Below are positions 1,665-3,885 of a stretch of DNA of 24,869 nt, in pieces. The DNA comes from an uncultured delta proteobacterium. Its GTDB lineage: Bacteria > Desulfobacterota > Syntrophobacteria > BM002. Location of the stretch: positions 1-24,869 of the forward strand of contig CAVQGX010000041.1 in NCBI GenBank assembly GCA_963712115.1, in the 5' to 3' direction. Numbering within the stretch: position 1 is the stretch's first letter; every line of letters begins with the position of its first letter. The position numbers were made by a program, and so were the translations under genes. Below the pieces are notes generated by a model, which was given only the letters and a program-made list of their open reading frames with translations, was not told the DNA's origin and did not search any database.

Positions 1665-1968
1665 TATTTCCAAACCTCCTGGACAACCTGCTAATAGATT
1701 CCTGATCTGCTAATTGAAACTCTTCGCCTTCTATTAACACAAACCGTACCAACTCAAGTGACTTGTTTTTTAATAAAATTTCCGAATAGTTATCCATTTT
1801 GCATCAGATACGATAACTCAGAAGATTGGTAAGTTAATTCATAGAGTGGAAATAAATTTCCCTTTTTCTGAAGACGGAAGTACTCATGGAGTATCCATCC
1901 TACGCAGAGAAATCGTCATCTTGGCACTTGACCGGTGGGGGAACCAAAGAGAAAGTGAGGTGGATAAG

Positions 1969-2036
1969 AAAAACCCAACCGACCCGAAAGCCGATTGGGG
2001 TCACTGTAAAACTTTATATTACATCCCTTAATTCAC
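1969..2036 (-). repeat. Repeat family B copy with minus-strand intrinsic terminator; its other part lies at 3328-3361, beyond the IS
   Basis: Minus-strand RNA CCCAAUCGGC-UUUCGG-GUCGGUUGGG-UUUUU pairs fully using G-U pairs. Shares ATTACATCCCTTAAT with 4158-4172. Confidence 0.7.
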
Positions 2037-2094
2037 ACCTATGAAAAAGCTGGTTGTCAAGTAAAAAAGCTCTGTTAACTGCCCGCCTGGAACC

Positions 2095-2226
2095 ACTATA
2101 TTGGGCTCATCGCCAAACACCTATCCGTGTTCACCTAAAGGTGTCACACTATCATGCGTCTGATAAACGGCGTCCCAATCACTTCGTCGGCCTCACCTTT
2201 GGTGGGCCATGTGAATTAACGGGTTA
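2095..2226 (-). ncRNA. Bridge/seek RNA of the IS1111 element (ends approximate)
   Basis: Two hairpin-containing internal loops whose unpaired strands match the target site (2211-2219, 2179-2187) and the predicted circle junction (2117-2124, 2151-2155). Confidence 0.8.
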
Positions 2227-3240
2227 CGCACAAACAGGATAGGTCTCCTTGTAAGGTGTTTGGTTTTTCCAGATGTAGAAAACGTACTGCAAGATCTTAT
2301 GGGCTGTGGCCACAATGGCCTTTTGATAGCCCGCCTTGACGATTCTTCTCCGGAAGAAAACACGCAACCTGCAGTTTTGCATTCTGGCTGCAGCCTGGGC
2401 AGCCTCGACCAGGGCGGTTCTCAGGTAGCGGGATCCTTGTTTGGTGATCCTGCCCCTTTTCTCTTTGCCAGCACTAGCATCTAAAGAAGGCACCAGACCG
2501 GCGTAAGAAGCCAGGTTCCGATATGAGCGAAAGCGGGAGATATCGTCTACCTCCGCTACAATGAACATGGCTGTGATAGGTCCAATGCCAGGGATAGTCA
2601 TAAGAAGTTGGGCTGTGTGATTCTCCTTTGCCAGGGCACGCACTGTTTTGGTTAAGGGCTCGATCTGCTCTTGGAGCCTTTCATAGAGCACAAGATAGGT
2701 CTCAACGTGTTGGCGGTGGTAATCTGGCAAGTCAATCTCTTCGAGATACCTCAGTCCCTGAACACCAAAAAGATCGCTAAAAGGACTTCTAAAATTGTTC
2801 TTCATCAGCAGGATATGGATGCGGTTCTTCATGCGGGTGGCATCTCGGACCAATTTGTTTCTATGCCGCAGGAGTTCTTTGAGTTTACGGGTCTCAAGGC
2901 TGCTGACATGAACGGTAGAGATCAAATCAGCCCTGAGAAGCTGAGCCAACATATGAGAGTCCACCTTATCGTTTTTGATCTTGGCCGAAGCAATGGCCTT
3001 GGTCTTCACTGGATTGGAGATCGTAACTTCAAAACCCTCTCCAGTAAGAAGATCATACAGCCAGTACCACGATGCCATAGATTCAATGACGATCTTGGTC
3101 TCGTCTCCTAGCTTGGCGAAGTAAGCCAAAATGTCCTCCTCCACATTCTGGAGGTTGGCTCTGGTGAAGATCTTTCCATGTGCATCGATTGTAGTAATAA
3201 AAGATGTTTTCTTGTGTAAATCAATCCCGGTATAATACAT
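2224..3240 (-). CDS. IS110-family DEDD transposase/recombinase
   Basis: RuvC-like GIDLHK, VIES and KNDKVD motifs; HhH-like TIPGIGPITA; LASYAGLVPS..SAGK catalytic-Ser region; ITKQGSRYLR; KAIVATAHK. AAGGAGG RBS. Confidence 0.97.
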   Translation of the reverse strand: MYYTGIDLHKKTSFITTIDAHGKIFTRANLQNVEEDILAYFAKLGDETKIVIESMASWYWLYDLLTGEGFEVTISNPVKTKAIASAKIKNDKVDSHMLAQLLRADLISTVHVSSLETRKLKELLRHRNKLVRDATRMKNRIHILLMKNNFRSPFSDLFGVQGLRYLEEIDLPDYHRQHVETYLVLYERLQEQIEPLTKTVRALAKENHTAQLLMTIPGIGPITAMFIVAEVDDISRFRSYRNLASYAGLVPSLDASAGKEKRGRITKQGSRYLRTALVEAAQAAARMQNCRLRVFFRRRIVKAGYQKAIVATAHKILQYVFYIWKNQTPYKETYPVCA

Positions 3241-3244
3241 GGTG

Positions 3245-3311
3245 GCTACCTCCTTTTGTTGCTAGTTATCCCCAAGGCCCATTTAACACCTAGGGCCTCG
3301 AAGGAGGTAGC
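3245..3311 (-). promoter_or_regulatory. Hairpin sequestering the transposase RBS
   Basis: 11-bp perfect inverted repeat GCTACCTCCTT (3245-3255) / AAGGAGGTAGC (3301-3311) includes the Shine-Dalgarno sequence. Confidence 0.6.
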
Positions 3312-3501
3312 TTTTTCATATGATCACTTCGTTGGGTTTCAAGCTGCTACAAAATATAGTTATCTTTCAACGCTTCACTGGTTTTGGCAACGAACTCCCA
3401 CAAACAGGACACTCTTTATCGTCTGGCTTAACCATACGGTGAGCATGCACTTGGGGCATTTAACAGGGTGGACTTTGACTCGTTTGGTTTCCATATGATG
3501 G

Positions 3502-3885
3502 TTATTTCTTTTTGGATTGAACTCTTGGGATGTAGAAGGGAACTAATTTCGTGTCCATAGATTCGAACTGGAAGACTTCAGCCTCTATTCGGCTACCAGG
3601 TTCTACTGACAGAGTGCCGTATGCTACCTTTCCTTTTACTGTTGCAGTTTTATTAATTGTTAGGAAGGCGTGGCAAACTAGTTCGCCTTCGAAATAACCA
3701 GAGATAGTGATGTTTACAGCTTCAGCACTACCGCTAACTTTGCCATTTAGGCCAATCTCTAAGGTCTTTGACTCTATGTCTCCCGTAAATGAACCTAAGA
3801 TGATCAAATCCTCAGATGTTTTTAGTTTGCCTTCTAAGCAGGAGTTTTCCAAAATGAGGGTAATCTCTTGTCGCTTAAATCGCAT
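3502..3885 (-). CDS. Bactofilin (CcmA-like polymer-forming cytoskeletal protein)
   Basis: Beta-helix repeats TLILENSCLEGKL...LIILGSFTGDI...LEIGLNGKVSG...ITISGYFEGEL...LTINKTATVKGKV..GTLSVEPGSRIEA. Confidence 0.9.
   Translation of the reverse strand: MRFKRQEITLILENSCLEGKLKTSEDLIILGSFTGDIESKTLEIGLNGKVSGSAEAVNITISGYFEGELVCHAFLTINKTATVKGKVAYGTLSVEPGSRIEAEVFQFESMDTKLVPFYIPRVQSKKK

Follow-up and report, generated by a model that had tools for sequence, protein, structure and literature searches.

The kind of system treated here was already described in 2024. The closest described members are the IS1111 seekRNA elements ISEc11, ISKpn4, ISPa11, and ISPst6 (Siddiquee et al. 2024, PMC11187229). As far as that account describes them, they share with the locus analyzed here a recombinase of about 340 amino acids (aa), subterminal inverted repeats, a long noncoding region downstream of the gene, an RNA beginning directly behind the gene, two short matches to the target that lie on opposite strands and overlap at the insertion point in the same 5' order, and natural retargeting among relatives. 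In the IS1111 seekRNA the guide complementary to the transposase-sense strand comes first, an order reversed with respect to IS110-type RNAs (PMC11187229). The hallmark given there for the IS1111 recombinase is a length of 330 to 350 aa with the motif GL-P----S(t)G; TA appears as an occasional variant, and SA is not among the variants named in that passage of the paper. Our locus differs from the four elements, as they are portrayed in the same source, in that 38 of 48 relatives have SA, and not SG or TG, at the catalytic Ser, and in that a palindromic host repeat of 13-7-13 design is targeted, not attC or a Tn21 end. Whereas those elements are known by RNP, transposition, and reprogramming experiments (PMC11187229), ours is known from its sequence alone.

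The bridge RNA of IS621 (Durrant et al. 2024, PMC11208160; Hiraizumi et al. 2024, PMC11208158) is a second point of reference. To the extent that these two papers set out its design, the likeness lies in two internal loops and in target guides that read different strands and both include a 2-nucleotide (nt) core; a DEDD + Ser active site is shared as well, and the bases after the 3' guide may correspond to the handshake bases of IS621, which match the other DNA partner (PMC11208158). In contrast to IS621 as presented in both papers, the RNA lies 3' of the gene here and not 5', and its guides come in mirrored order relative to the gene; CA/TG takes the place of CT as the core; the donor guide on the 5' side is weak, at 5 nt and with no core; and there are long subterminal inverted repeats, which may share in end recognition. 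A third comparison is offered by ISPpu9 and ISPpu10 of Pseudomonas putida, REP-targeting elements of the IS110 family (PMC12288879). From the description available in that paper, these are alike in fixed-position insertion in a multicopy short palindromic repeat and in carrying a gene for a small RNA downstream of that for the transposase, and the repeat used here differs in having two 13-bp arms, a 7-bp spacer, and two spacer types, all within a longer module.

Within the window, by which we mean the whole 24,869-nt stretch of DNA that was analyzed, positions 2038 to 3324 together with one CA very probably constitute an intact, minus-strand IS1111-group member of the IS110 family with a downstream structured guide RNA, the RNA occupying the right-end noncoding region of the element. 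It is a further case of the described kind, in an uncultured sediment lineage. Its main parts are as follows.

2038..3324, minus strand: body of the insertion sequence, 1287 bp, or 1289 bp with one copy of the CA core.
2224..3240, minus strand: intact recombinase (transposase) gene, 338 aa, identified by Pfam, NCBIfam, and alignment to IS621; stop codon at 2224-2226.
2040..2051, unstranded: right-end copy of the subterminal inverted repeat, TATGAAAAAGCT, a 12-bp inverted match in a BLAST search of the element against itself, kept in relatives.
3309..3320, unstranded: left-end copy of the subterminal inverted repeat, the partner of 2040..2051 in the same search.

The recombinase has the domain composition of the IS110 family, with an N-terminal DEDD RuvC-like domain (PF01548, DEDD_Tnp_IS110; 88 bits, E 6e-25) and a C-terminal Tnp domain (PF02371, Transposase_20; 101 bits, E 4e-29), and it scores 270 bits against the NCBIfam model NF033542, "IS110 family RNA-guided transposase," for which the cut-off is 140. 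In an alignment to the IS621 recombinase (8wt6, E 2e-13), the catalytic positions of IS621 line up with GID(7), IES(53), NDKVD(91, 94), and the serine of LDASAG, the IS621 residue numbers being those given in the relevant part of PMC11208158; the catalytic D, E, D, D, and Ser are thus all present. These positions are kept in 47 to 48 of 48 full-length relatives. The motif GLVPxLDxS(A/G), which reads GLVPSLDASA in the window protein, is found in all 48, and the catalytic Ser is followed by A in 38 and by G in the other 10. With 338 aa and the Ser in 48/48, the protein agrees in size and motif with the IS1111 group, and the initial annotation was right to call an IS1111-type element with an intact 338-aa recombinase. 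The closest plasmid-borne relatives have less than 40% amino-acid identity, and those from metagenome-assembled genomes (MAGs) have 64 to 75%.

The remaining architecture is also that of the IS1111 group as characterized in PMC11187229 and PMC11208160. The subterminal inverted repeats, set in from the element ends by 2 and 4 bases, are 12 bp long, within the group's range of 7 to 17 bp, and the noncoding DNA is longer downstream of the recombinase gene (186 nt, 2038-2223) than upstream (84 nt, 3241-3324), with the RNA scaffold lying in the longer part. Two further signals were seen near the right end. A conserved TTGACA on the minus strand (2055-2061) points outward, 17 nt from the right end and in the same place in relatives, a placement like that in the junction promoters of circular IS forms; no convincing -10 hexamer partner was found by eye across the predicted circle junction. 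Also, a terminator-like hairpin of 11 pairs followed by a T-run lies on the minus strand at 1974-1999, in the host-repeat flank 38 bp beyond the right end, where read-through transcripts from the element or from an upstream host gene could end.

The genome holds four copies of the element, with identities of 100, 96, 91, and 90%, which are named here by their contigs (C41 for the window copy, C42, C48, and C36). The 338-aa frame is intact in the window copy and in C48, and C42 and C36 each carry a one-base indel/frameshift near codons 43 to 45, which in a MAG could be an assembly error. The two indels (at locus L002 on C42 and locus L004 on C36) lie within about 10 bases of each other, at element positions of about 212 and 221 in the transposase sense, and such clustering could reflect a sequencing artifact or a hotspot.

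The candidate guide RNA would be a structured RNA of about 125 nt or more, encoded just past the stop codon on the same strand as the gene. Its scaffold and the parts of its first, target-binding loop are the following.

2103..2226, minus strand: conserved scaffold of the putative bridge/seek RNA, 124 nt from the stop codon to GGCGAUGAGCCC; the extent of the candidate RNA is taken from conservation in alignments A1 (10 sequences) and A2 (47 sequences).
2220..2223, minus strand: 5' strand CCCG of the stem that closes the target loop, with its partner UGGG at 2174-2177; 99.5% of cells paired.
2210..2219, minus strand: 5' side of the target loop, UUAAUUCA+CA, complementary to the transposase-sense flank strand beside the right end (8 nt) plus the core.
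2188..2209, minus strand: hairpin that splits the target loop, UGGCCCACC-AAA-GGUGAGGCCG, with compensatory changes.
2178..2187, minus strand: 3' side of the target loop, ACGAAG+UG+AU, reading in the sense of the left-end flank (5-6 nt) and the core.
2111..2172, minus strand: second (donor) loop, with closing stem CGCCG (2172-2168) against UGGCG (2115-2111) and a hairpin at 2148-2127.

The structure tested on 47 distinct aligned relatives (A2) consisted of four helices, namely, a closing stem and a hairpin for each of the two internal loops. In this arrangement 94.7% of 1175 cells were paired, against 30 to 43% when the 3' partners were slid. Compensatory changes occurred in 5 of 25 pairs, and the observed number of compensatory cells was reached by none of 500 shuffles; covariation is limited, as the scaffold is very conserved and partly fixed by the search pattern. 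Specifically, the pattern used to fetch the 72 metagenome relatives itself fixes part of the scaffold, so that invariance in that part is not evidence. Compensation in the hairpin that splits the target loop consists of GC to AU at columns 20/40 (4 sequences) and AU to GC at columns 24/35 (5 sequences), and the stem closing this loop shows no variation, so that its pairs are neutral for or against it. The minus-strand fold is better than all 200 shuffles (minimum free energy z-score of -3.26). Three G-U pairs, invariant or present in 46 of 47 sequences, are possible only on the minus strand, and their retention there argues that the minus strand is the RNA strand.

Other searches for signs of the RNA gave less. 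A scan of positions 1800-3600 against Rfam 15 (E up to 1) returned no bridge-RNA family and one chance viral match, and no sigma-70-like promoter for the RNA was found on the minus strand. In two RNA-library runs (X15 and X16) contigs cover the element at 90% likeness or more and leave its left flank uncovered; relatives or library DNA could be their source, and since contigs cannot show RNA ends or strand, they are not counted as evidence of transcription. In four related loci (L060, L066, L106, and L056), either the target loop's 5' half or the stem closing it is missing or has been replaced, and the remaining scaffold is kept. These may be decayed copies or RNAs with a different start.

The target loop is symmetric, with 10 nt on either side: 8 flank bases and CA on the 5' side, and 6 flank bases, UG, and AU on the 3' side. 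The 5' side (2210-2219) agrees with window positions 2028-2037 at 10 of 10 bases, as does the 3' side (2178-2187) with the reverse complement of 3323-3332. When the 185-nt right end was shuffled 200,000 times, the 10-mer TTAATTCACA arose in 29 shuffles, the 8-mer ACGAAGTG in 665, and both together in none, so that these exact matches to the occupied junctions are not due to chance. The AU that ends the 3' guide equals the first two bases of the element, which starts with AT in 52 of 52 junctions; its position in the RNA is fixed by the search pattern, and the label "handshake-like" rests on its placement. The guide segments read by the initial annotation all stand on the minus strand where it places them, namely, UUAAUUCAC (2219..2211), ACGAAGUGA (2187..2179), AUGAU (2155..2151), and AUAGGUGU (2124..2117), with the hairpins between them and the stop codon at 2224-2226.

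The four genomic copies, diverged as they are, carry three different 5' guides, each of which fits its own flank. They are listed here in the plus orientation of the window.

Window copy (C41): left flank TTAATTCAC; 5' guide UUAAUUCAC; right flank after the terminal TCAC, TTCGT; 3' guide match, 9/9.
C42 copy: left flank TTAATTCAC; 5' guide UUAAUUCAC; right flank after the terminal TCAC, TTTTC; 3' guide match, 7/9.
C48 copy: left flank GTAATCCAC; 5' guide UUAAUCCAC; right flank after the terminal TCAC, TTTCA; 3' guide match, 8/9.
C36 copy: left flank TTAATTTAC; 5' guide UUAAUUUAC; right flank after the terminal TCAC, TCTTC; 3' guide match, 7/9.

As the flank changes from TTCAC to TCCAC and TTTAC, the 5' guide changes along with it. 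We then extended the comparison to five MAG loci with proteins 67 to 74% identical, one right end from a congener, and the 72 metagenome loci found by the scaffold pattern. This gave 82 RNA instances, 76 of which were parsed; L043, L045, L056, L060, L066, and L106 were dropped as truncated or variant before the guide and junction counts. Among the 76 there are 29 distinct 5' guides and 38 distinct 3' guides. The 5' guide agrees with its own flank at a mean of 7.43/9 over 54 unique events, against 3.75/9 over 2740 swapped pairs, with at least 7/9 in 45 of the 54 events and 6/9 or fewer in the other 9. For the 3' guide the corresponding means are 4.83/6 over 53 events and 1.93/6 over 2682 swapped pairs. 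By position, the family-wide matches are distributed as follows.

First core position: 47/53.
Second core position: 50/53.
Flank positions f1 to f7: 39-50/53.
Flank position f8: 25/53.
Other flank, positions t-1 to t-5: 44-50/52.
Other flank, position t-6: 15/52.

These rates indicate that about 7 + 2 + 5 bases are specified across the family; the window copy itself appears to pair at 8 + 2 + 6 = 16 positions. Of the two DNA strands, written in the transposase sense, the top one is complementary to the 5' guide and the bottom one to the 3' guide. The guides of one loop thus fit opposite target strands, overlap at the insertion point, and covary with the target among relatives, which is the pattern of a seekRNA, and these comparisons support natural reprogramming of the guides among relatives. 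By extension from the family, the window element would be potentially reprogrammable, as the initial annotation proposed. The comparison of flanks that the initial annotation had proposed as a check comes out in its favor, both in the four genomic copies and family-wide, as does its central reading of a two-loop guide RNA 3' of the gene, given the conserved fold and the covariation of guides with flanks.

One could also suppose that no RNA is involved, the guide-like segments either working as DNA or being target sequence that the element has passively acquired. The Rfam result and the nature of the RNA-library contigs, which are not direct evidence of RNA, would suit this proposal. We nonetheless regard it as extremely improbable, as the segments lie 170 to 190 bp inside the element, in a conserved internal loop whose flanking stems keep G-U pairs that only the minus strand can form, and as the two segments read opposite target strands and overlap at the core. 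Moreover, the same layout acts experimentally as RNA in ISEc11, ISKpn4, ISPa11, and IS621, according to the results reported in the pertinent sections of PMC11187229 and PMC11208160.

Where exactly the element ends is a separate matter. CAC is identical at 2036-2038 and 3325-3327, and the window copy alone cannot place the crossover more precisely. The initial annotation had removed 2037-3327 (1291 bp), leaving a 14-bp target TTAAT-TCAC-TTCGT with a 4-nt TCAC core and a circle junction CATATGA-TCAC-ACCTATG. It is true that TCAC stands at both junctions of the window and C42 copies, and that AUAGGUGU agrees at 8/8 with ACACCTAT at the occupied left junction. The 14-mer TTAATTCACTTCGT also occurs once elsewhere (C20:217702), unoccupied and in an unrelated context, where about 0.04 occurrences are expected for a random 14-mer. 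Four lines of evidence disagree with this version. First, two of the four genomic copies have CCAC or TTAC in place of the left TCAC, and CAC is common to both junctions in all four. Second, among 99 copies of the host repeat with full flanks, three of which are the occupied copies and read ACC, the bases that follow TTCAC are ACT in 68 and the first of them is A in 94, whereas removal of 1291 bp would put TTC there, and TTCAC-TT occurs in 0/99; the whole genome has 55 occurrences of TTAATTCACAC and 6 of TTAATTCACTT, where 2.3 would be expected for each. Third, metagenome run X1 includes a contig in which exactly 1289 bases are skipped (2039-3327; 3 bases ambiguous), not 1291, although with 23 letters on its shorter side it is weak alone, and many paralogous X1 contigs follow the left flank to 2038, not 2036. 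Fourth, in the relatives, read in the RNA sense, the left-end junction is N-TG-ATCATATG in 52/52 and the right-end junction is CATAGG-TG-N in 47/53, and TG is the only dinucleotide common to both.

The repeat consensus, the copy registers, the X1 contigs, and the relatives' junctions together place the ends two bases away from those first proposed, and a TCAC core is very improbable. On the revised reading, the core copies are these.

2036..2037, unstranded: left copy of the core dinucleotide CA (TG in the RNA sense), placed by the junction statistics of relatives.
3325..3326, unstranded: right copy of the core dinucleotide CA, placed by the junctions of the genomic copies and relatives.

By these junctions, the shared core is the dinucleotide CA on the plus strand of the window, TG in the RNA sense; the inserted DNA, as delimited in this way, is 1289 bp including one core; and the reconstructed empty site is TTAATTCA-CA-CTTCGT, that is, TTAATTCACAC|TTCGT. 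The predicted circle junction should then be CATATGAT-CA-CCTATG, two bases shorter than first given. A target of 14 bp holds as a total, near the approximately 7 + 2 + 5 positions found family-wide, and its composition has to be revised. No back-joining joint of the circle junction was seen among the metagenome contigs examined, which cannot show its absence. An orthologous empty site was unreadable, no close ortholog of the flanking gene having been found (orthologs are ~70% identical), and in 61 related genomes the element appears only as fragments at contig ends, except for one right end with its flank.

In 6 of the 53 related insertions, the right-end dinucleotide is CA or CG and not the donor TG. 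In five of these six, the dinucleotide is Watson-Crick complementary to the core part of the insertion's own 5' guide, and the left-end dinucleotide is always the donor TG (52/52). Loci with such a CA or CG complementary to their guide (UG or CG) are L042, L048, L061, L073, L091, and L094. Two further loci bear on the same matter: L111 has guide UG and junction TG, and L101, with CA both in its guide and at its junction, occupies a site that fits the guide of a sibling and not its own. The CA/CG junctions, together with L101, could come from recombination between unlike cores or from mobilization in trans.

The second loop is predicted to read the joined element ends, and its two sides are the following.

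2155-2151, minus strand: 5' side of the donor loop, AUGAU, complementary to left-end bases 1-5 (ATCAT); 5 nt.
2124-2118, minus strand: 3' side of the donor loop, AUAGG+UG, equal to the right end plus the core, 7 nt, followed by U at 2117.

Judged by its sequence, this loop is only half convincing. The 3' side is clear, AUAGGUG being invariant in the 47 distinct A2 sequences and present in 73 of the 76 parsed RNAs. The 5' side is weak, as AUGAU stops short of the core and AG stands at the place of core pairing. At its base, the donor hairpin has a pair (columns 81/106) that holds in only 25 of 47 sequences, and RNAalifold finds an alternative local pairing, UUAUCA with UGAUAG, which would hide AUGAU and which shows one-sided changes only. 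Of the donor loop in the initial annotation, then, AUAGG-UG on the 3' side is retained, the eighth base (U2117) is not, as it matches the target flank and not the donor, and the 5-nt AUGAU does not reach the core. Comparing by eye the base after the donor guide with the first flank base, we see U with T and G with G in two groups and disagreement in a third. End recognition may also involve the long subterminal repeats, a role suggested by the seekRNA authors for the IS1111 family in the part of PMC11187229 that treats it.

The target belongs to a host repeat.

2009..2037, plus strand: host repeat that supplies the target, with arm AAACTTTATATTA, 7-bp spacer CATCCCT, and arm TAATTCACA...; it resumes past the element, from ~3327 to ~3491.

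The element sits in the right arm of the palindrome AAAGTnTnnATTA - CATCCCT - TAATTCACACTtt, with 13-bp arms and a 7-bp spacer. A 15-mer of the repeat has 102 genomic matches with at most two mismatches, a few of which are unrelated chance matches, so that about 100 copies of the repeat exist. There is a second spacer type, AAGTATG/CATACTT, in which relatives with guide UUAAUCCAC sit, and the right-hand module of the repeat recurs in the genome at 70 to 85% identity. The repeats occur mostly in co-oriented arrays, 0.7 to 1.4 kb apart, downstream of small genes. Their arms read AAAGTGTGGATTA / TAATTCACACTTT, and they are antisense to the small genes between copies, as on contig C3 (106-128 kb, L005). 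A second hairpin after the palindrome keeps G-U pairs on the strand of the repeat. Many metagenome contigs show related elements flanked by the same arms. When 14 repeat copies were folded singly, they had no long hairpin in common other than the 13-7-13 palindrome, and an Rfam scan of a 19.5-kb repeat array returned nothing.

We considered whether the repeat is an integron attC and rejected this identity, as the canonical attC, CCTAAC...GGTTAGG, differs from the 13-7-13 repeat; the element therefore falls outside the IS1111-attC subgroup. The genome does have an integron integrase on another contig (TIGR02249, 487 bits, cut-off of 265), with attC CCTAAC...GGTTAGG beside it. At that locus (C27:1-3300, L006), the region upstream of the integrase, as far as the contig end, holds at least four attC-like repeats with the pattern (C)CTAACGGCCGAGCTCAGCGGCGGGGCTG...CCCCGTCCG..GCAGCGA.TGGTTA(GG). 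In its sequence the 13-7-13 architecture looks like a lox/dif-type core site.

The window copy could, alternatively, be a structurally intact yet immobile relic, the match of guide to flank recording a single past insertion. In line with this, the 14-nt target specified by the window copy has no exact unoccupied site in the genome, two of the four copies are frameshifted, and the copies differ by 4 to 10% and hence are not recent duplicates. Against it, the open reading frame is intact, as is every catalytic position; the window copy has a 3' guide that is perfect against its own variable flank, which suggests little drift since insertion; one X1 contig resembles an empty allele (weakly); and 16 sites lie within one mismatch of the specified target. 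A further 77 sites differ from it at two positions, and the guides of the C42 copy have four exact unoccupied sites in the genome. On balance we consider a relic unlikely.

On the main reading, that of an RNA-guided recombinase, the element would work as follows. The recombinase combines its DEDD RuvC-like domain with a Tnp domain that bears the catalytic Ser; by analogy with the family, the RNA would be made and bound by the recombinase, and a circular intermediate and the strand-exchange chemistry would likewise follow the family pattern. The 5' side of the target loop, UUAAUUCA-CA, would pair with one target strand on one side of the crossover, and the 3' side, ACGAAG-UG, with the other strand on the other side, both covering the same core; the final AU, matching the first two element bases, would behave as a handshake guide does. 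The second loop may read the joined element ends, clearly with its 3' side and weakly with its 5' side. The recombinase-RNA complex would then take the circle (CATATGAT-CA-CCTATG) to TTAATTCA-CA-CTTCGT, with strands exchanged at CA. A repeat of about 100 copies would offer many near-cognate landing sites, and mutations in the guides would retarget individual copies.

Beyond this, we put forward one joint proposal as speculative and rather unlikely, namely, that the family records how IS1111-type recombinases handle unlike cores and, as a second reading, that the 13-7-13 repeat, with its two spacer types, belongs to an unrecognized recombination system and is not REP-like. If the CA/CG junctions were true products of recombination between nonidentical cores, the core would be read via wobble-tolerant RNA pairing, and each junction would take its core from a fixed partner, which would show with what polarity strands are exchanged when the layout is mirrored as in IS1111.

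Taken together, the window element leaves the known mechanism unchanged and should not surprise a specialist. It is a well-documented natural case of a system that is under development as a genome-editing tool, and its pattern of guide use (7-8 + 2 + 5 bases), combined with the junction statistics, amounts to a design rule for work with this ortholog. The four copies in one genome represent natural guide swaps, and the family as a whole presents a compact recombinase with a highly conserved RNA scaffold that has apparently been retargeted at least 29 times in nature in sediment bacteria of the Desulfobacterota type.
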